In this document: piece after piece, positions 2,925-46,383 of the stretch
Numbering within the stretch: the first letter of the stretch is position 1
Layout of the letters: every line of letters starts with the position of its first letter
Assembly (NCBI GenBank): GCA_016206155.1
Contig: JACQSC010000001.1
Location: 5,105 to 69,104, forward strand
Length of the DNA stretch: 64,000 nucleotides
DNA from: Candidatus Uhrbacteria bacterium
Lineage (GTDB): Bacteria; Patescibacteriota; Patescibacteriia; JACQRZ01
Direction of reading: 5' to 3'
Position numbers and translations under genes: made by a program
Notes under the pieces: model-generated
Database searches by the model: none
Told to the model about the DNA's origin: nothing
Seen by the model: only the letters and a program-made list of their open reading frames with translations

Positions 2925-3476
2925 ATGCATTTTTTACGTTTTGTCATTGCCGTTTTTGCGCTGACGGTTATCCCGATCCTCGTCGGTGTCGGGGTTGTTA
3001 TTTTTTCAAATACCCTTAAACCCTCCACGGGTTTGGCTGTATTTGACAACCGTGATTTTGGCATATCATTTTCCTATCCATCGGAGTGGAAAAAAGAGTA
3101 TCCATCAAAAACGATGATTCGTTTTTCTCAGGACCCAGTTGCCATGATCTTTGAGGGGAAGGAGCTGGATGCGCAAAAAATCCGCACGCTTGCAAAGTAC
3201 ACAAAAGAAAATCTCAGCGAGATCGCAGAGTCGGCGGAGGCATCGGGGTTTACTTATGTATTGGAAGAATCGGCGCCGGCGATGCTTGGCGGAAAAGAGG
3301 CGCATCGTATTTCTGTACTGATGGAGAAAGAGTGGCATACGCTTCGCGTCGTGCAAGTATGGAGTATCGTAAACGATCGAATCTATGCAGTGTCGTTTTC
3401 CGCGCCTCTCAATGGCTGGCCCACTGCTGTACAATCGTTTGAAAACGTGCTTCAATCACTCAAAATAAGGGATTAG
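2925..3476 (+). CDS. hypothetical secreted/membrane-anchored protein (PsbP/DUF1795-like fold suspected)
   Basis: N-terminal TM segment followed by a soluble domain; weak resemblance only. Confidence 0.4.
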   Translation: MHFLRFVIAVFALTVIPILVGVGVVIFSNTLKPSTGLAVFDNRDFGISFSYPSEWKKEYPSKTMIRFSQDPVAMIFEGKELDAQKIRTLAKYTKENLSEIAESAEASGFTYVLEESAPAMLGGKEAHRISVLMEKEWHTLRVVQVWSIVNDRIYAVSFSAPLNGWPTAVQSFENVLQSLKIRD

Positions 3477-6740: not shown

Positions 6741-9253
6741 CATTCTCTCAATACACGACTCAAGCGGTTGATGAGATTCTTTTTGGGTTGAACACCTCTC
6801 GCGCGACAGGCCTCTCAAGCGATGAGGCGCGCACGCGGCGTGGCCAATATGGCGCGAATGAAATAGTGCGACGCGAGACAACCTTGCGCGATCTTCTGAT
6901 ACGCCAATTCCGTTCGTCGTTCATCTATCTTCTTCTTGCGGCAGCGTTTATCTCGTTTCTCCTTGGTGAGATCATCGACGGGCTTCTCATCGTATTGTTT
7001 GTTCTTATCAATGTCAGTTTAGGATTTTTCCAAGAATATCGGTCGCATAAGACCATTGCGCTACTCAAGCAATACATGCTACCGCATGCGACGGTGCTGC
7101 GCGACGGTGCGCAGGGCTCTGTCGCGCGTTCAACGGTAGTCCCCGGAGATATTATTGTTGTCCAGCCCGGCGCGATGGTTCCCGCAGACGTACGATGGAT
7201 TGATGCGAACGATCTGGCTATTGACGAGTCTGCGCTGACCGGTGAGTCCGCGCCGGCTCTGAAAGGCTCGTTTCATCTAGCGCATGCCGCACAAGAAATT
7301 TTTCAGGCAATAAATATCGGATTTGCCGGCACAACCGTCGTGCGCGGCCGAGGCACCGGAGTTGTGATTGCCATAGGCGCGAGAAGCGCCTTTGGATCTG
7401 TTGCGGCGCTTGCCACAGAGACCGAACGTTCAGGTTCCTTGGAACAGGGACTGACCTCCTTTTCCAGTTTTATCCTTCGGCTCGTGCTTCTGACGCTCGC
7501 GGTCCTTTTTCTCATCAATATAGCGCTTAAGGGCGATTCGCTTTCATGGGCGCGCTTGTTGGTTTTTTCTATTGCGTTGGCCGTCAGCGTTATTCCGGAA
7601 GCCTTGCCGCTCGTGATGACGTTTTCTCTTTCACATGGCGCACGGCGCCTCGCGCAAAAAAAAGTCGTGGTCAAGCGCTTGGCAGCCATTGAAAACCTTG
7701 GGAGCATTGACGTATTGTGCACCGACAAGACGGGCACATTGACAGAAAACGTGCTTACGGTTGCGCACATTCTTCCACGCAAAAAGAGCGATCCGCTTTT
7801 TTGGGCATGCGCGGGAACACCGCATATTGCGGACCACGTGCAGCGCGATCCGTTTGACATTGCTTTCTGGAATGCGCTTGCCCCCAATCAACGCAACGAT
7901 GTCATGCGCTTTGAGCGCTCCGCCGAAATTCCGTTTGATCCTGTGCGGCGACGCAACACCACCGCGGTCCGAAATGGGAGGTCGCTCATTGTCATTAGCC
8001 GCGGCGCCTATGAACACATTGTACCGCTCTGTGCCGCGATACCAAAAAAAGAGCGTGAAACACAGGAGCAATGGATTGCAGACGAAGGACGGGACGGGAG
8101 GCGCGTGGTCGCCATTTCAATTCGAACCGTTCAAAAAAAGGATGGCGCGGATTTAAAAAAAGATGAAACCCGGATGCGCTTTGCCGGACTCATTTCTCTT
8201 GCCGACCCGCTGAAACGAAGCAGCAAAGACGCCGTTTTTAAGGCTCGAGAACTGGGTGTTCAGCTTAAGATGCTTACGGGTGATAGTCCCGAAGTCGCCG
8301 GCGCTGTTGCGCGCGCCATCGGACTTGCCGAATCGGAACATGACGTTATGACCGGCAGTTCATTTGACCACCTTACGATCGACGAGCAGCGGCAAGCCGT
8401 TGAACGGATTAACGTTTTTGCGCGCGTTAATCCCGAGCAGAAGTTCCGCATTATTCAGCTGCTGCAGCATACGCATACTGTTGGATTTCTCGGTGAGGGA
8501 ATTAACGATGCGCCAGCACTCAAGCTAGCGCATGTTGCGCTCGTGGTGCAGGGTGGCGCTGACATCGCGCGCGAAGCGGCGGACATCGTTCTTTTGAAAA
8601 AAAATCTTGGCGTCATCGTCGACGGGATCCAGGAGGGACGAGAGGTATTTGTCAACACGCTCAAGTATATTCGCGCAACGCTTGCATCCAACTTCGGCAA
8701 CTTTTACGCCGTTGCGGTTTCGTCACTGTTTATTCCTTTTTTGCCGATGCTGCCGCTGCAGATTTTGCTGGTGAACCTTCTTTCAGATTTTCCAATGATC
8801 GCGATTGCAACCGACCGCGTTGATCGCCAGGATGTCAAAAAACCGCGCACATACCACATTCGCGACATCGCCCTGATCACAACGCTTCTTGGCCTCGTGA
8901 GCACGATCTTCGATTTTATCTTCTTTGCGTTATTTCGCGGATTTGATCCGGGGATTTTGCAAACAAACTGGTTTATGGGCAGCATCCTTACTGAGCTTGC
9001 GTTTCTTTTCTCAATACGGACGAATCGTTTTTTTCTAAAAGCGCAGGCGCCGTCCCTGTCCCTGGCAGGGTTTTCCGCACTCGCCATTGCCGCAACGATT
9101 GTTTTGCCCTATACGAGCATAGGGCAGAGACTATTTTTATTTATCCCGCCAAGCAGCACACACCTGATTATTATTTTTACACTTGTTGGCGCATATCTTG
9201 CGGTATCCGAGGCAGTGAAGCTTATGTACTATCGCCACGTTGCGCACTCGTAG
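6737..9253 (+). CDS. cation-transporting P-type ATPase (P2/P3-type, Ca2+/Mg2+ class)
   Basis: Phosphorylation motif CTDKTGTLT; hinge motif GEGINDAPAL; 838 aa with 8-10 TM segments. Confidence 0.85.
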   Translation: MTFSQYTTQAVDEILFGLNTSRATGLSSDEARTRRGQYGANEIVRRETTLRDLLIRQFRSSFIYLLLAAAFISFLLGEIIDGLLIVLFVLINVSLGFFQEYRSHKTIALLKQYMLPHATVLRDGAQGSVARSTVVPGDIIVVQPGAMVPADVRWIDANDLAIDESALTGESAPALKGSFHLAHAAQEIFQAINIGFAGTTVVRGRGTGVVIAIGARSAFGSVAALATETERSGSLEQGLTSFSSFILRLVLLTLAVLFLINIALKGDSLSWARLLVFSIALAVSVIPEALPLVMTFSLSHGARRLAQKKVVVKRLAAIENLGSIDVLCTDKTGTLTENVLTVAHILPRKKSDPLFWACAGTPHIADHVQRDPFDIAFWNALAPNQRNDVMRFERSAEIPFDPVRRRNTTAVRNGRSLIVISRGAYEHIVPLCAAIPKKERETQEQWIADEGRDGRRVVAISIRTVQKKDGADLKKDETRMRFAGLISLADPLKRSSKDAVFKARELGVQLKMLTGDSPEVAGAVARAIGLAESEHDVMTGSSFDHLTIDEQRQAVERINVFARVNPEQKFRIIQLLQHTHTVGFLGEGINDAPALKLAHVALVVQGGADIAREAADIVLLKKNLGVIVDGIQEGREVFVNTLKYIRATLASNFGNFYAVAVSSLFIPFLPMLPLQILLVNLLSDFPMIAIATDRVDRQDVKKPRTYHIRDIALITTLLGLVSTIFDFIFFALFRGFDPGILQTNWFMGSILTELAFLFSIRTNRFFLKAQAPSLSLAGFSALAIAATIVLPYTSIGQRLFLFIPPSSTHLIIIFTLVGAYLAVSEAVKLMYYRHVAHS

Positions 9254-16548: not shown

Positions 16549-17305
16549 TGGAAACCGGTGTCAGGTCTGGTTTTTATATTCTTCGCGTGTATACTGATCA
16601 TATATGGGAAGATCACCTCGAATCCAAGCACCAGATATAACCTTTCATATTATCAACCGTGGTAATGGAAAAAATACTATCTTCCATTCGGATAAAGACT
16701 TTCATGAATACCTCGAACTACTGCAATGCTACCAAGAAAAATTTGATATGCGCATCTACCACTATGTCCTTATGTCGAATCATGTTCATATTCTCGTTGA
16801 GCCCTCAAAGGAAAACTCAATTTCAAAATTCATGCAAGGGCTGACACTGGCGCACACCATGCGTTTTAATATGCGATATCAGTCAGTTGGTCATGTCTGG
16901 CAGGGACGATTTAAGAGCATTCCTATCGAGACAGACATATATTTTCTTCAGTGCGGACGATACATTGAACTCAATCCTGTGAGAGCGGGAATCGTGTCCC
17001 ATCCATCACGATATCCGTGGAGTAGCTACCAGTTTTACGCTCAAGGAAAACAAAATAAGCTCCTGAACACCGACCCCTTCTATGATGAACTCGGAAGTTC
17101 GACGTCTCAACGGAGAGAGCGATACACGCAATATATCGAAGAAGAATTGCCCAACATACATGCCCGCTCAGCAATACGATTCTCACAAGATCTTGTTTAC
17201 GGGAGTGAATCCTTTGTCAATAAGCTAAAAAATGATTTCAACTACGAACCAACTCGAAGGAAAGGTGGGAGACCGAAAATAAACCAGACCTGACACCGGT
17301 TTTCC
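16549..17305. mobile_element. IS200-like/REP-associated tyrosine transposase (RAYT) unit bounded by 25-bp inverted repeats
   Basis: Left GGAAACCGGTGTCAGGTCTGGTTT (16549-16573); right AAACCAGACCTGACACCGGTTTTCC (17281-17305), its reverse complement; the right repeat overlaps the transposase stop codon. Confidence 0.7.
16604..17293 (+). CDS. Y1 HUH transposase, IS200/IS605 TnpA-like / RAYT (COG1943)
   Basis: Motifs FHIINRGN, SNHVHILVE (HuH), HVWQGRF, YIELNPVRAGIV, YPWSSY. Confidence 0.85.
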   Translation: MGRSPRIQAPDITFHIINRGNGKNTIFHSDKDFHEYLELLQCYQEKFDMRIYHYVLMSNHVHILVEPSKENSISKFMQGLTLAHTMRFNMRYQSVGHVWQGRFKSIPIETDIYFLQCGRYIELNPVRAGIVSHPSRYPWSSYQFYAQGKQNKLLNTDPFYDELGSSTSQRRERYTQYIEEELPNIHARSAIRFSQDLVYGSESFVNKLKNDFNYEPTRRKGGRPKINQT

Positions 17306-17323
17306 CGGTTTTCCAGTTTTGAT

Positions 17324-19776: not shown

Positions 19777-19905
19777 TTGATGTATTATCCCGAGATTGGC
19801 GGCGTGCGCATTGAAGATGTGGTTGTTGTTACCGAGGATCGATGCCAGAATTTGACCGATGAGCCGAAGGAGTATATAATCGAATACATAAAATATTTTT
19901 TCGAG
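19777..19905 (+). pseudogene. 3' remnant of an M24 (Xaa-Pro aminopeptidase/MetAP-like) gene fused in frame to the next gene
   Basis: Encodes GVRIEDVVVVTEDRCQNLT, the conserved C-terminus of M24 peptidases; no upstream body is present. Confidence 0.4.
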
Positions 19906-20154
19906 ATGGCATCAACCAATTTAAAACACATAACCTGCGACCCTTCTATCCTTGGAGGAAAACCAGTAATACGCGGGACGCGCATTTCTGTTGAATTTAT
20001 TCTTGAGCTTCTGCATTCGGGAATGGCGCTGAATGATATTCTCAAGGAGTATCCGCATCTTAAACGGCGGGATCTGGAGGCGGCAATTGCGTTTGCCAGG
20101 CATGCGGTATCGCGCGAGGAAGTGATTCATTTTGAATTAGCAACCGCTCGCTAA
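19906..20154 (+). CDS. DUF433-family (antitoxin-like) protein
   Basis: Segment ILGGKPVIRGTRISVEFILELL typical of DUF433. Confidence 0.55.
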   Translation: MASTNLKHITCDPSILGGKPVIRGTRISVEFILELLHSGMALNDILKEYPHLKRRDLEAAIAFARHAVSREEVIHFELATAR

Positions 20155-20157
20155 GAT

Positions 20158-20385
20158 ATGCGTTTTCTTGCCGATGAGAACATTCTCACGCACGACAAGG
20201 ATTTTACATACCAAGAAAAGGTGCCGGTAATTTTGTTGCGTTTTAGAGATCAGAAACCGATCAACGTCAAAAGGGGATTAATCGGATTTTTTGATCGTCC
20301 AGAAGTTGGGAGACTTAAAAAATCGATTACCGCTGTGCTGTCAGAGTACGGCGTTGAATTCCATAAACCGTTTGAATTGCGATGA
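20158..20385 (+). CDS. DUF5615/PIN-like (Mut7-C type) putative toxin
   Basis: N-terminus MRFLADENI; adjacent to the DUF433 partner. Confidence 0.45.
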   Translation: MRFLADENILTHDKDFTYQEKVPVILLRFRDQKPINVKRGLIGFFDRPEVGRLKKSITAVLSEYGVEFHKPFELR

Positions 20386-21503
20386 CCAAAGAGTCACTCA
20401 AACAGACATTCCTTGAATTGGTTGCGATTAACAGCCACCATCCCGACGAGGCAGAGATTGCGAAGTATATCTGCGCTTTTTTTGATAGATCCGGAATACA
20501 ATGGAAGAAGGATTCGTTTGAAAATATTTTTGCCTCTATTCCCGGTGAGGGCGAACCGGTGTTGCTGTCGACCCATATTGATATTCCCGAACCGGCGCCG
20601 CACGTCAATCCTGTTTTTGAGGGTGATATCATTCGCTCTGACGGTACGAGTATCTTGGGTGCCGATCCCAAAACCGGCCTTGCGGTGATCCTTGAATTCG
20701 CCCGTGATTTGAAATTGGTGAAATTGGTGTCAAGTCCGAATTTCGAACAAAATTCGGACTTGACACCAATTTCGGCGCACGCGCCGGTTGAGATTTTGCT
20801 TACGCGCGGGGAAGAGAAGGGACTTCTTGGCGCGCTGAACGCTGACTATTCACTTCTGAAATCAAAAATAGGTTTTTGTCTTGACGAAGATGGGCCCGTG
20901 AATCAAGTAACGGTGAAGGCGCCAGGGTATGTGCGTTTTGACGCGTCATTCACCGGAAAAGTTGTGCATACGCGCGAGCCGGAAAAGGGGATTAACGCAC
21001 TCCAGGTGTTCTGTCATGCGGTACGCGATCTACCGTGGGGATACGCTTGTGACGGGGTTACCTGGAATATCGGACAATTCCAATCAGGCACTGCGCGCAA
21101 CAGCGTACCGAGGTACGCTGAGGTACACGCGGAGCTTCGGGGTTTTGACACCGAGAAATTGCGCAGGGAAGCGCAGCGCATCGCGGAACGTTTCTGCAAA
21201 ACAGCAGAGCAGTTTGGTGCGACCTGCGATGTGCAGCACAATGTGATGTTTGAGGGATATGACATCGATCGGAACCATCCGCTGTTTGCGCGGATGAACG
21301 TGGTATATGAGAAGATGGGCTTGACCCAGCAGTATCATGAAACCTACGGTGGTAGCGATGTCAATGTTTTTATTGCAAAAGGAATTACCGCAGTCACGCT
21401 CGGATCCGGCTACTACAACGCGCACGAATACACCGAGTATGCAGACCTTGCAGATATGGCGCAGATTTATACATTCTTGACAGAATTTTTGAGGGTGCAA
21501 TAA
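20382..21503 (+). CDS. M20-family metallopeptidase (PepT/ArgE/DapE clan) carrying an in-frame palindromic insertion
   Basis: M20 motifs (STHIDIP, GADPKTGLAVILE, EEKGLLGA). Confidence 0.7.
   Translation: MTKESLKQTFLELVAINSHHPDEAEIAKYICAFFDRSGIQWKKDSFENIFASIPGEGEPVLLSTHIDIPEPAPHVNPVFEGDIIRSDGTSILGADPKTGLAVILEFARDLKLVKLVSSPNFEQNSDLTPISAHAPVEILLTRGEEKGLLGALNADYSLLKSKIGFCLDEDGPVNQVTVKAPGYVRFDASFTGKVVHTREPEKGINALQVFCHAVRDLPWGYACDGVTWNIGQFQSGTARNSVPRYAEVHAELRGFDTEKLRREAQRIAERFCKTAEQFGATCDVQHNVMFEGYDIDRNHPLFARMNVVYEKMGLTQQYHETYGGSDVNVFIAKGITAVTLGSGYYNAHEYTEYADLADMAQIYTFLTEFLRVQ
20712..20772. repeat. 52-nt perfect palindrome with a 9-nt tandem leader, inserted in frame in the M20 peptidase
   Basis: aaattggtgtcaagtccgaatttcgaacaaaattcggacttgacaccaattt preceded by a gaaattggt duplication; encodes about 25 extra residues between conserved M20 motifs. 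Confidence 0.7.
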
Positions 21504-23226: not shown

Positions 23227-23918
23227 AAAAATCACACTATCGCATACTCGTGCGTGCGGCGGGATTGATTCTTATTGTTGGCATCGCTATTGGCGCTGTC
23301 ATGGCAGTCCGTGAGCAAAACAAATCAGCGCGGAGATCGCTGCTGTCAGAACAGGCGCAGGAAAAGGCGGTGTCGCCGGAATTATCGTCAAAGCCGATTG
23401 TTCGCGAGAACAAGGGAGTAACTGAGATTTCTCTGCCAAGCGCACCGGAAGTCACTACACAGGCGACCATTGAGGAGCTGAAAGAATTCCGGAAGCGGAG
23501 CGAAGAATTGGAGCGCACTGTCGCGGCGCTGACGAAGGAAAAGAAAGAGAGCGAACTTGTGGTGGGGCTTGGCGACGCGCCATTGAAGGTAGAGCCGCTG
23601 TATACGTTTGAGCAACAGCAAAAAGGATTGATCGGGCGCGAGAGCTTGCCAGAGGATAGTGGTATGCTCTATATCTTCCAAATGGATGATTCGGGACGCC
23701 TTTTTGGCACAAAGGGAATGAAGTTTCCCGTCGATATCATCTGGGCGAACAACGATCGAACCGTTGTGCATATTCACAAAAACGTCCCGCCGAATTTTGT
23801 CGATGACCTTAAAAGTCTCTGGCCCGCACGCTATGTACTGGAAGTGAACGGCGGATATGCAGATAAGCACGGGATAGATGTTGGTGATACCATCGACCTA
23901 TCCAAGATACCACATTGA
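23223..23918 (+). CDS. DUF192 (COG1430) domain protein with N-terminal TM and coiled coil
   Basis: C-terminal DUF192-like block (MLYIF..VDIIWAN..VLEVNGG). Confidence 0.55.
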   Translation: MKKSHYRILVRAAGLILIVGIAIGAVMAVREQNKSARRSLLSEQAQEKAVSPELSSKPIVRENKGVTEISLPSAPEVTTQATIEELKEFRKRSEELERTVAALTKEKKESELVVGLGDAPLKVEPLYTFEQQQKGLIGRESLPEDSGMLYIFQMDDSGRLFGTKGMKFPVDIIWANNDRTVVHIHKNVPPNFVDDLKSLWPARYVLEVNGGYADKHGIDVGDTIDLSKIPH

Positions 23919-23922
23919 AAAA

Positions 23923-24006
23923 AGGGTATAGCGTTTAGGGTACAGGGTATAGGGGGGGGGAATTCTCTTCTAAACCCTAAACCCTAAACCCTAAACCCTA
24001 AACCCT
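23923..24006. repeat. inverted heptamer arrays: G-rich TTTAGGG/AGGGTAYA block followed by (CCCTAAA)x4
   Basis: gggtatagcgtttagggtacagggtataggggggggg ... ctaaaccctaaaccctaaaccctaaaccctg; the two halves are mutually complementary. Confidence 0.8.
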
Positions 24007-24954
24007 GTGACTGTTTTTGCCTACATCATCGCGCTGTTCTTCCTCTTCTACCTCTTGGGCAAGAGCGCGGATGTTGTTGTCAAGCGAGTGCGACTCATTT
24101 CTGAACGGCTCGGTATCCGCTTGTTTCTCCTCGGCATTATCTTGGGGCTTTTTACCTCGTTGCCGGAAATTTCCATCGGCATCAACTCGCTGGTTGACGA
24201 CGTTCCCGACCTGTCGCTGGGAAATCTCATGGGCGGATTTATAGTGCTCTTTGGCCTCATCATGGGGGTGAGCTTGATTTTGAATAAGCGCATTAAAACT
24301 GACGGAAATCTTTGGCACTACGCGCCGATTTTGATTTATTTTTTCCTCCCGTTCCTCTTTGTTCTCGATGGACACATCCAACGACAAGAGAGCCTCGTGC
24401 TTATCGCGGCGTACGTCGGTCTGCTGATTCATCTGTACCGTGCCTACCACAAAGAAGTTTCAACAGAGAAGAGAGATGTCGAATTTCGCCTTCCTCAGAT
24501 ATTTAACGATATGCTCATCATCCTCGTTGGGCTCATCGCCGTCACGCTCATTTCCAATGTCATTGTTCGCATCACGGAGGGGCTGCTTGTTGAGGCCCAT
24601 GTGTCACAATTCTTCATCGGCGTTCTGCTTTTTTCAGTGGGCACGAACCTTCCCGAGATTATTGTTGCTTTTCGCGCGTGGCAGAAGCACATGAAAGAGC
24701 TCACGCTCGCGCATCTTTCGGGTTCCGCGATGACCGATCCGTTGTTGATCGGCATTTTTTCTTTTATTCAGCCCTATACGATCGAGGTTAATGGGTCGTA
24801 TATGCTTTTTTTCTTTTTTAATTTTGTGCTGTTTGTGCTTGTCGGGATATTTTATAAAACCGGTAAAGTATTGTCACGAACAGAGGGGATTGTGCTCTTG
24901 GGGATCTATCTGTTGTTTCTGTATGTTGAGATTACTTTTGGATTGAAGTTCTAA
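24007..24954 (+). CDS. Ca2+/Na+ antiporter (CaCA/YrbG family)
   Basis: Two alpha-repeat signatures (GNLMGG..; VGTNLPEIIVAF); GTG start abutting the repeat. Confidence 0.7.
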   Translation: MTVFAYIIALFFLFYLLGKSADVVVKRVRLISERLGIRLFLLGIILGLFTSLPEISIGINSLVDDVPDLSLGNLMGGFIVLFGLIMGVSLILNKRIKTDGNLWHYAPILIYFFLPFLFVLDGHIQRQESLVLIAAYVGLLIHLYRAYHKEVSTEKRDVEFRLPQIFNDMLIILVGLIAVTLISNVIVRITEGLLVEAHVSQFFIGVLLFSVGTNLPEIIVAFRAWQKHMKELTLAHLSGSAMTDPLLIGIFSFIQPYTIEVNGSYMLFFFFNFVLFVLVGIFYKTGKVLSRTEGIVLLGIYLLFLYVEITFGLKF

Positions 24955-37804: not shown

Positions 37805-37847
37805 GGGGTCAGGCACAGATTCGCTTCGCGAAACTGAGCCTGACCCC
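37805..37847. repeat. hairpin with GGGGTCAGG/CCTGACCCC stems (same stem core as the tatD insertion)
   Basis: ggggtcaggc-N23-gcctgacccc. Confidence 0.5.
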
Positions 37848-37856
37848 ACTGAACAA

Positions 37857-37899
37857 ATCAACGGCTAAACCGGTTTAGCCGTTGATTTTTGTTTTGCGA
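37857..37899 (+). terminator. strong intrinsic terminator of the giant gene
   Basis: Perfect 15-bp palindrome atcaacggctaaacc/ggtttagccgttgat followed by ttttgtttt. Confidence 0.75.
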
Positions 37900-37992: not shown

Positions 37993-38766
37993 ATGTCATC
38001 CTATTACAAAGGCAAACGATCACGAAACATCTTTGATCCTTTATCTCATGAGCCCTTTAGGGTCTCTCGTTCCAAGATCGAGCTTTTTTCCTCCTGCCCC
38101 CGTTGTTTTTATATCGACGTGCGGCTTGGTGTTGGCCAGCCTCCGGGATTTCCCTTTAATCTCAACTCCGCAGTTGATACTCTTCTTAAAAAAGAGTTTG
38201 ACATACATCGTAGCATGAGCACCGCGCATCCCCTCATGGAGGCGTATGGCCTTGACGCGGTGCCGTTCAGCCACGAGAAAATGGACGAGTGGCGCGATCC
38301 GTTCAAGGGTGTTACGTTTCTCCATGAGCCTACGAATTTTTATGTCACCGGAGGCGTTGATGACGTTTGGCAAAATCCGGAAAAGGAGCTTATCATCGTT
38401 GACTACAAGTCAACAAGTAAGGAAAGCGAGGTAACCATCGATGCGGAGTGGCAGCAATCATACAAGCGCCAGATGGAGATTTATCAGTGGCTCTTTCGCA
38501 ACAACGGTTTCTCCGTATCTGATACGGGGTACTTTGTTTACTGCAACGGCAGGCGCGATGTGGCTGCCTTTGATGGAAAACTTGAATTTGACATTAAGCT
38601 GATTCCCTATACCGGCAGTGACTTGTGGATCGAAAGCGCGCTTGCCAGCATGAAGCAACTACTCATGGCAGATGTGGTCCCTGAACCGGGCGACTGCTGT
38701 GATTTTTGTACCTATCGCCGCGATGCGCGAGAAGTCTTAACGAAACTCGTAACTCGTAACTCGTAA
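37993..38766 (+). CDS. PD-(D/E)XK nuclease, Cas4/RecB-like (solo, no cas neighbours)
   Basis: N-terminal Cys motif (C-X2-C) plus C-terminal CCDFC for an Fe-S cluster; IIVDYKS (D..K) and QMEIY (QhxxY) motifs. Confidence 0.6.
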   Translation: MSSYYKGKRSRNIFDPLSHEPFRVSRSKIELFSSCPRCFYIDVRLGVGQPPGFPFNLNSAVDTLLKKEFDIHRSMSTAHPLMEAYGLDAVPFSHEKMDEWRDPFKGVTFLHEPTNFYVTGGVDDVWQNPEKELIIVDYKSTSKESEVTIDAEWQQSYKRQMEIYQWLFRNNGFSVSDTGYFVYCNGRRDVAAFDGKLEFDIKLIPYTGSDLWIESALASMKQLLMADVVPEPGDCCDFCTYRRDAREVLTKLVTRNS

Positions 38767-38840
38767 CTCGTAACTCGTACAGGGATTGGGAGGCGTCGTT
38801 TTTCCAAATTACAAGTTACGGATTACGAGTTACTGATTAC
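38744..38840. repeat. (CGTAACT)x5 heptamer array followed by inverted AGTTACG copies
   Basis: actcgtaactcgtaactcgtaactcgtaactcgtac ... caagttacggattacgagttactgattac; overlaps the stop codon of the Cas4-like gene. Confidence 0.8.
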
Positions 38841-45674: not shown

Positions 45675-46204
45675 CCGGCAGGGTCGCGATAGTCATACCA
45701 CTCGCCGTAAATTTTTTTTGAAACAGTGAGCTGACGCTCTTCTCGTTGATTTAAGAGCATTTTGATTTCGTCAAGCGTTTTCCCCGCGTATTTATTCGTC
45801 TGCGTTGCCCGTTCAGCTCGAATCTGCACCGGCGCGGTAATAAAAACCCGCAAGACAGGTAAACCGTCGCCGATGATACCATGCCACATGTCGCCAATGA
45901 CGTTTCCACGCTCGAGCATCTCGTGCGCGCGCTGGTCCATTGCGCTGTCTTCCTCAAGGGTAATGGTGGTGAGATAGTTTTCGAACGACACCTCCTTATC
46001 GGGGTACTTTTTTGTCCATTCTTCCCGCCAGAGTCCGCCAACATAGAATACGGGCCATCCCAACACCTCGGCAAGCTGGCGCGATGTTGTGGTCTTTCCC
46101 GAACCGGGAAGTCCCGAGAAGAGAATGCCGGAATATCGTTTTCCCATTGATTTTTCAGGCATAATTTGATACGCTGGAACAAGAATCTTATTGACCTTCA
46201 CCAA
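45593..46204 (-). CDS. P-loop kinase, cytidylate kinase-like family
   Basis: Walker A motif GLPGSGKTT; about 200 aa. Confidence 0.5.
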   Translation of the reverse strand: MVKVNKILVPAYQIMPEKSMGKRYSGILFSGLPGSGKTTTSRQLAEVLGWPVFYVGGLWREEWTKKYPDKEVSFENYLTTITLEEDSAMDQRAHEMLERGNVIGDMWHGIIGDGLPVLRVFITAPVQIRAERATQTNKYAGKTLDEIKMLLNQREERQLTVSKKIYGEWYDYRDPAGYHLTLNSGLLSVEEKISSVLHFFGKE

Positions 46205-46383
46205 TTACCTTAACGAAAAACCTATGATTTTGGCCAGCTCCTTGCTCTTCGCCGCAAAAAATTCTCATCGTACTGATAGTACGACTGCGGTTTTTTACGC
46301 CTCCAGAGCAGCAGATCTGTCTCAAAATCATACACTTTTTCTTGTTAACGCAATTGGTGAAGGTCAATAAAGCTGACAGCGTT

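Follow-up and report, generated by a model that had tools for sequence, protein, structure and literature searches.

We analysed a 64,000-nucleotide stretch of a Candidatus Uhrbacteria contig (hereafter the window), in which a gene for an M20-family metallopeptidase carries an inverted repeat within its reading frame. We conclude, with a probability of about 0.8, that this palindrome is a REPIN, that is, a pair of inverted repetitive extragenic palindromic (REP) units, and that its family has a cognate REP-associated tyrosine transposase (RAYT) encoded at 16604-17293 and itself bracketed by REP units. The core sequence shared by the repeats and the bracketed RAYT together argue for a REP/REPIN-RAYT system in a bacterium of the candidate phyla radiation (CPR), with four of the window's five doublets lying inside genes.

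An in-frame insertion in an intact M20 peptidase gene

Read directly from the sequence, the element at 20711-20773 consists of GAAATTGGT followed by GAAATTGGTGTCAAGTCCGAATTT-CGAACA-AAATTCGGACTTGACACCAATTTC. A repeat search delimited two arms of 24 nt each, 20720-20743 and 20750-20773, which are 100% complementary and separated by a gap of 6 nt. An earlier note on this DNA had called it a perfect palindrome of 52 nt. The inverted repeat does exist, but it measures 24 + 6 + 24 = 54 nt, and since the CGAACA at its centre lacks self-complementarity the palindrome is imperfect. The same note had placed a tandem 9-nt duplication ahead of the palindrome, and this is present at 20711-20728, with GAAATTGGT at 20711-20719 and again at 20720-20728. 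The arm sequence occurs twice in the whole window and gave no match in 100 shuffles. Folded as single-stranded DNA, the hairpin has a predicted energy of -26.8 kcal/mol (z = -9.6).

The palindrome had also been read as an in-frame insertion in a conserved M20 peptidase, and comparison with orthologues bears this out. Alignment with M20 homologues, the check suggested at the time, showed that the segment is missing from nine close Uhrbacteria orthologues (72-77% identity, 356-364 aa). These proteins have 'ELARDLA', six variable residues and then 'HAPVEILLTRGEEKG', and the window protein has 22 residues in place of the six. The net gain of 16 aa (48 nt) falls between 'ARDL' and 'HAP', where the alignment with 3GB0, a homologue of known structure, has a gap of 16 residues.

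The host gene is intact. The ORF (open reading frame) at 20382-21503 runs uninterrupted across the hairpin and encodes ...ARDLKLVKLVSSPNFEQNSDLTPISAHAPVEILLTRGEEKG; the predicted tryptic peptide over the insert is LVSSPNFEQNSDLTPISAHAPVEILLTR. Its product matches the Pfam families M20_dimer and Peptidase_M20, scores 219.9 bits against the NCBIfam PepT-like model (under the cutoff of 274.25) and is 100% identical to a Candidatus Uhrbacteria protein in NCBI. All residues that are invariant in the alignment are kept, including H65, D95, E144, E145, D168 and H348, which we take to be the metal and catalytic residues. With an open frame and every invariant residue retained, the gene gives no sign of being a pseudogene, the objection that had been foreseen. 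An AlphaFold model built from the alignment (predicted local distance difference test, pLDDT, 88.9; predicted template modelling score, pTM, 0.86) is confident outside the insert and places the insert between the helix 97-116 and the strand 136-141, with residues 116-127 below a pLDDT of 50.

Other orthologues carry repeats at this very point. In the M20 orthologue of contig L001 (67% identity), the loop holds a decayed doublet of the M20 element's family whose boundaries are different; the orthologues of L002 and L003 have a different palindromic family, GTCATYCCGAG...CTCGGGATGAC, in that loop. The copies of this other family lie at 3283-3450 in L002 and 306-480 in L003, with the peptides RHSE.AEESR and SLGMT, and its peptide signature RHSE..AEESR recurs in the linker of the methionyl-tRNA synthetase (MetRS) of other Uhrbacteria (P0245, P0248). 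Since different elements occupy them in orthologues, the M20 loop and the MetRS linker are permissive sites that have been hit repeatedly.

A family of REP units in the window

The M20 element belongs to a repeat family. We found 12 full REP units and one partial copy of the core (60008) in the 64 kb, arranged as five inverted doublets and two single units. Every arm that was aligned (M20, tatD, metG, uvrB and an intergenic copy) has the core GG(T/G)GTCA(G/A)G at the same position, flanked in all cases by an A-rich 5' side (G/A-AAA-xx) and a T-rich 3' side. In three doublets the arms, 24-25 bp long, are fully complementary, and z scores for the four doublets that were folded ranged from -7.4 to -12.9.

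Four of the five doublets lie inside long ORFs, those for the M20 peptidase, UvrB, MetRS and a TatD-family hydrolase, in a window with a coding share of about 90% by crude ORF cover. The MetRS and TatD segments coincide with gaps in homologues from the PDB and are missing from close relatives as well, and the uvrB element fills a variable linker ahead of the C-terminal UVR domain. The MetRS protein with its insert is present both in NCBI and in independent Logan assemblies; the tryptic peptides predicted for the insert are MVSGSISEK and MEPDTIFSQGISDQVGDDSIHER. The family also extends beyond this genome. On another Uhrbacteria contig, L007, a doublet whose arms match the M20 arm at 24/24 nt lies in a gene for a UvrD-like helicase (3183/3217), which holds a second doublet of the type found at 37805, the GGGGTCAGGCAC subfamily, which occurs on L007 at 1567-1614. 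Because an arm identical at 24/24 nt sits in an unrelated gene, the REP unit is a DNA element and not a protein motif. In the window, the intergenic REPIN at 37805-37847 is followed immediately by a perfect 17-bp palindrome with a T run (37855-37888), which looks like a terminator.

The copies inside genes share a reading phase. Seven intragenic copies were compared, of which the window contributes four, L007 two and L001 one; in 7/7 of them the core is read as G|GTG|TCA|GG and encodes x-Ser-Gly/Ser. This phase is open in every copy, against 4 of 14 cases for the two remaining phases. A choice between open frames existed in just four of the seven copies, so the bias (p ~0.06) is no more than suggestive. 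In the complementary arm, one phase always yields CC|TGA.

A REP-bracketed transposase 3.4 kb from the M20 element

The RAYT gene lies 3.4 kb from the M20 palindrome. Single REP units at 16550-16573 (+) and 17281-17304 (-) bracket its ORF in inverted orientation, and its TGA stop codon (17291-17293) is provided by the core of the 3' unit (CC TGA CAC C). The product matches the Pfam family Y1_Tnp (E 5e-17) and reaches 22.4 bits against the NCBIfam model transpos_IS200 (NF033573), under the cutoff of 55. A phmmer search of the single sequence against the PDB gave no match. With a profile of 22 homologues, the best match in the PDB was 4ER8, the RAYT-REP complex of E. coli TnpA-REP (E 7e-8), ahead of ISDra2 TnpA (2XM3, E 8e-6). 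The alignment with 4ER8 spans the HUH motif and the Tyr helix 'YIELNPVRAG', and the HUH histidines H60 and H62 and the tyrosine at the catalytic position, Y120, are invariant among the homologues.

This arrangement recurs among relatives of the enzyme, of which there are about 2900 at E < 1e-10, many on short contigs. Relatives whose source is named come mostly from Uhrbacteria, Magasanikbacteria and CPR2, with some from Omnitrophota and Nitrospirota. All three of the RAYT homologues with 65-80% identity (L007, L008 and L009) have REP units on both sides. We also sampled more distant homologues at 80 metagenome loci; of the 69 loci with enough flanking sequence, 60 are flanked by inverted repeats whose core reads G[GT]G[TA]C[AG] and whose stems vary by locus. 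Such bracketing, seen in 3/3 close and 60/69 distant loci, is what defines a REP-RAYT unit. The 229-aa product turned up in a Logan assembly only; since it was not among the proteins of NCBI, the gene may lack annotation in the deposited metagenome-assembled genome. The coordinates of the features are collected in Table 1.

Table 1. REP units, REPINs, transposase and host gene in the window (positions counted from its first letter).
Feature	Position	Strand	Basis or remark
REP unit GGAAACCGGTGTCAGGTCTGGTTT, 5' flank of RAYT	16550..16573	+	motif search
RAYT-like Y1 HUH transposase, 229 aa	16604..17293	+	Pfam, NCBIfam, PDB profile match
REP unit GAAAACCGGTGTCAGGTCTGGTTT, inverted, 3' flank of RAYT	17281..17304	-	partial duplicate GGAAAACCGG at 17305-17314
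M20/PepT-like metallopeptidase, intact, insertion host	20382..21503	+	373-aa ORF, Pfam/NCBIfam, alignment
Partial tandem duplicate of REP 5' end, GAAATTGGT	20711..20719	+	sequence reading
REPIN, two inverted REP units GAAATTGGTGTCAAGTCCGAATTT, 6-nt spacer	20720..20773		in frame, M20 gene
REPIN, GGGGTCAGGCAC subfamily, 20-nt arms	37805..37847		apparently intergenic, beside terminator-like palindrome
Older degenerate REPIN, 27-nt arms 81% complementary, 23-nt spacer	49981..50057		in frame, uvrB linker (48171-50186 +)
REPIN, 25-nt perfect arms	58365..58420		in frame, methionyl-tRNA synthetase metG (57279-58835 +); repeat search, homologues
REPIN, 24-nt perfect arms (60026-60074), with partial 5' copies (60004-60025)	60004..60074		in frame, tatD (59832-60722 +)

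How the units may enter genes, and alternative explanations

How would such units come to lie in genes? By analogy with E. coli TnpA-REP and the TnpA enzymes of IS200/IS605, the RAYT would recognise REP on single-stranded DNA, making specific contact with the invariant GG(T/G)GTCA(G/A)G core. Cutting and rejoining by the RAYT would then copy or move the doublet to new sites, so that the mobility of the family would be RAYT-catalysed. Because the Uhrbacteria genome is about 90% coding, most landing sites would be genes. The copies that persist would be those whose length is a multiple of three bases, whose x-Ser-Gly/Ser phase is open and which fall in surface loops or linkers: the M20 loop leading from the helix after Asp95 to the strand before Glu144/Glu145, the linker that follows 'LAMAEK' in MetRS, the one that precedes the UVR domain in UvrB and a loop of TatD. 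There they would be translated as short hydrophilic loop extensions that do not destroy the enzyme.

Several observations weigh against this reading. The hairpin of a single REP unit is weak, with predicted stems of 6-7 bp at -3 to -4 kcal/mol (z = -1.3 to -3.3). Column covariation paired 72% of cells in single units against 70% in shuffles, and a slid register did equally well; this signal is weak because A/T-rich stems pair by composition and because the subfamilies differ in register. A test of own against swapped flanks on the single-unit hairpin gave p = 0.036. The units start with G(A/G)AAA... and have neither the GTAG nor the CGTC tag of the described REP superfamilies. The best NCBIfam model for the transposase, REP_Tyr_transpos (NF047646), gave 70.4 bits against a curated cutoff of 80, which points to a divergent clade. 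The stems of the dispersed doublets are unlike those of the units that flank the RAYT gene, so recognition of all subfamilies by this single enzyme is an assumption. The insertion in the M20 gene may be 48, 54 or 63 nt long: excising 54 nt leaves the loop 2 aa shorter than in the orthologues, and excising 63 nt leaves it 5 aa shorter. Translation of the inserts and retained activity of the enzymes are predictions from sequence.

A further difficulty for simple IS200/IS605 or cut-and-paste models, which do not predict them, comes from one-sided partial duplications. These direct copies comprise the initial 9-17 nt of a REP unit, differ in their end points and are located just outside it. They are found beside the M20 copy (20711-20719), the tatD copy (60004-60025) and the 3' REP of the RAYT gene (17305-17314); on L007 beside the helicase copy (3160-3175) and in the RAYT flanks (7050-7068, and ~7830-7841 just outside the 3' REP); and in the RAYT flanks of L009 (690-703 and 1454-1470). 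Hairpin slippage and abortive strand transfer are guesses at how they arose.

These duplications, with their variable end points, are what would be expected of slippage, and they bring forward the rival that survives best: that a REP-derived element spreads without the RAYT, by template switching or slippage at replication forks, where the REP end (TTTCTC/TTTC) and native GA(G/A)AAA would provide the priming microhomology, the RAYT locus being merely another REP site. The junctions agree with such a process, for three of the four insertions in the window begin exactly at native Glu-Lys codons, GAG AAA or GAA AAA, which form the outer six bases of the left arm (uvrB 49980-49985, metG 58365-58370 and tatD 60000-60005). 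In element-free relatives these bases align with native Glu/Gln-Lys, namely 'LAMAEK' in all MetRS orthologues, the consensus 'LAEK' in TatD and 'SVQK' in UvrB. Yet the GARAAA junctions fit either process, since a fixed target beside GAAA is also expected from an enzyme of the IS200/IS605 type that inserts 3' of a short specific sequence. Moreover, a REP bracket conserved around the transposase across a wide clade is the signature of a functional REP-RAYT unit, and a conserved core with variable stems is a better fit to recognition by a protein than to pure microhomology. We therefore consider spread without the RAYT unlikely.

The earlier note had held that the M20 element is unrelated to the tatD element and represents a second palindromic family. 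On their face the arms encourage this view, as they are identical at just 14/26 aligned positions, and orthologues elsewhere do contain a family that is plainly distinct (GTCATYCCGAG...). However, the M20 and tatD elements have core, architecture, spacing and codon phase in common. The core unites five of the strongest hairpins in the window with the RAYT flanks, and the copies in metG, uvrB and the RAYT flanks are intermediates that carry it. Arms that match at 14/26 positions around a shared core are subfamilies of one family and not unrelated families. Both statements are contradicted by the shared core, and an independent second family for the M20 element is very improbable.

About as improbable is a native peptidase loop, or one selected at the protein level, or else an assembly artefact. 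Loop length does vary among M20 orthologues, and the M20 protein is recorded from one NCBI contig. Against all of these stand a 24-bp complementarity that is perfect even at the third positions of codons, the occurrence of the same DNA within an unrelated gene in a second genome, the lack of the segment in nine close orthologues and the presence of the sister MetRS insertion in independent assemblies. Last, a MITE, or miniature inverted-repeat transposable element, with ends matching an insertion sequence (IS) of the DDE type would also be short and non-coding with terminal inverted repeats, but it can practically be set aside, because the M20 element has no symmetric target-site duplication (the duplicate is one-sided and repeats the terminus of the element itself), the window showed no DDE transposase whose ends would match, and it is with the flanks of a Y1 transposase that the element's ends agree.

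Wider distribution and other repeats of the window

A scan of one genome per species for GGTGTCARGT..ACYTGACACC returned at least 120 matches and is not usable as a census of Uhrbacteria. Among the matches listed, at least about 30 are REPIN-like, from several phyla, and hairpins of the same design (aaaaGGTGTCAGGTxxxTTTT) occur in Proteobacteria, Planctomycetota, Acidobacteriota and Firmicutes. The dominant class among the listed matches is a distinct one, in which the heptamer GGTGTCA forms inverted arrays; it comes from Acidobacteriota, Gemmatimonadota and other phyla. Copies in these genomes and at the metagenome RAYT loci stand mostly in a short-ORF (intergenic) context, with a few possible exceptions. 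One of the metagenome contigs with a distant RAYT homologue, L154, has a REPIN with the core GGGGACAGACCAC at 8078-8140 within an open frame of 342 codons, possibly an intragenic copy outside Uhrbacteria. An exact 21-mer of the M20-type arm had no match in JGI metagenome contigs; close relatives are mostly in Logan assemblies, which lie outside that search. A full-text literature search for the core motif returned unrelated primer sequences only.

The window contains other repeats as well. A perfect hairpin at 54892-54961, with 24-nt arms GGGCAAGGGATAAGCCCTTGAGAC and a 22-nt spacer, is of unrelated sequence, and each of its arms is a small palindrome (CAAGGG..CCCTTG). It lies within the first 27 codons of an ORF with a Dus domain (Pfam match from residue 46) and may belong to a 5' untranslated region or to an N-terminal extension; this hairpin is possibly a true second REPIN-like family of the genome. 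Two intergenic gaps hold inverted heptamer arrays, (AGGGTWT)n facing (CCCTAAA)5 at 23918-24018 and (GTAACTC)5 facing degenerate (GAGTTAC)n at 38744-38840, similar in design to the inverted GGTGTCA arrays of other phyla. At 46188-46370, the gap separating a divergent pair of ORFs is bridged by a 33-nt inverted repeat, 88% complementary, whose arms lie 117 nt apart; AATTGGTGAAGGTCAA, within one of the arms, is faintly REP-like. Directly 5' of the M20 gene are two small ORFs (19777-20154 and 20158-20385) that look like a toxin-antitoxin pair, and in the syntenic contig L002 a DUF433 gene lies upstream of the M20 orthologue.

Comparison with known systems

REP/REPIN-RAYT systems reportedly include TnpA-REP/YafM of E. 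coli with its REPs and bacterial interspersed mosaic elements (BIMEs) and the REPINs of Pseudomonas fluorescens; the work is said to be that of Nunvar in 2010, Bertels and Rainey in 2011 and Messing in 2012, the last with PDB 4ER8. The Uhrbacteria system resembles them in its short units, which form inverted doublets with long hairpins, and in a Y1 HUH transposase with its tyrosine, bracketed by two inverted units, for which 4ER8 is the best solved match. It differs in its CPR host, in a core that reads GG(T/G)GTCA(G/A)G with an A-rich 5' side and no GTAG tag, and in having 4/5 window doublets inside genes, so that the location is not extragenic. The transposase also falls below the NCBIfam equivalog cutoff and is longer, at 229 aa against 165 aa.

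The enzyme fold and the hairpin-guided, single-strand logic are shared with IS200/IS605 elements (TnpA of IS608 and ISDra2). Insertion beside a short specific sequence with no target duplication, as in those elements, would fit the GARAAA junctions. Unlike IS200/IS605, the system has no TnpB, its ends are identical inverted units and not distinct left and right ends, the IS200 model of NCBIfam is missed and the PDB match is weaker than that to TnpA-REP.

Palindromes of another kind, the Rickettsia palindromic elements (RPEs), include RPE-1, which is roughly twice as long as the units described here. As far as RPEs are portrayed in the account of Ogata et al. 2000 given in PMC3733652, the likeness lies in in-frame palindromes within conserved genes of a small, gene-dense genome, in tolerated loops and with intact hosts. 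The encoded peptides are related to one another, as in RPEs, because the phase is the same. The Uhrbacteria units are presumably unrelated in sequence, come from an unrelated host phylum, are shorter (49-77 nt) and are accompanied by a candidate transposase flanked by the same repeat; RPEs are treated as analogues only.

Di Nocera et al. 2013 (PMC3733652) described intragenic REPs in several species. Dimers encoding 20-30 aa are common among them, and repair genes (uvrA/uvrB/uvrD/recBCD) hold many. Hosts of these intragenic GTAG/CGTC REPs include Opitutus terrae, R. conorii and Thauera, and the R. conorii repeats were equated with RPE-4 and RPE-6 (PMC3733652). CPR genomes lay outside that survey (PMC3733652). 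The Uhrbacteria elements are similar in being dimers within genes, including uvrB in the window and the UvrD-like helicase gene of L007, and in encoding ~16-25 aa. They differ in having no GTAG/CGTC tag and in an intragenic share that is much higher in the sampled 64 kb.

Implications for CPR genomes

What does the window add to these precedents? Intragenic REP dimers and the RPEs of Rickettsia have already been published. New are the CPR host, an untagged class of REPs with the core GGTGTCAGG, the high intragenic share in the sampled region and a bracketed RAYT beside in-frame copies. In the papers that could be searched, we found none linking RAYT or REPIN with CPR, which is absence of evidence only.

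REPINs are usually placed outside genes, and the RAYT is usually regarded as a single-copy, domesticated enzyme. In-frame palindromes are, to our knowledge, best known from Rickettsia, where we know of no mobilising enzyme. Here both features occur together in a CPR bacterium: a REP-bracketed RAYT, and doublets of the same repeat in the M20 peptidase, MetRS, UvrB and TatD. They offer a concrete candidate pair of enzyme and substrate for the entry of palindromes into genes, and they help account for some of the odd loop insertions in CPR proteins. They also carry a warning for annotation, structure prediction and phylogeny, in that such segments of 16-25 residues would be selfish DNA and not lineage-specific functional loops.

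More tentatively, and with the odds against it, this could be a REPIN lineage adapted to the coding sequence of streamlined CPR genomes, with one fixed open phase that would specify a small hydrophilic loop (Lys-Met/Leu-Val-Ser-Gly/Ser ... Leu-Thr-Pro/Pro-Asp-Thr), targeting next to GA(G/A)AAA and the same permissive loops hit repeatedly. If that were true, RAYT activity would regularly generate variation in the loop length of essential proteins, MetRS and UvrB among them, and the missing transposase link for RPE-like in-frame palindromes would be supplied.

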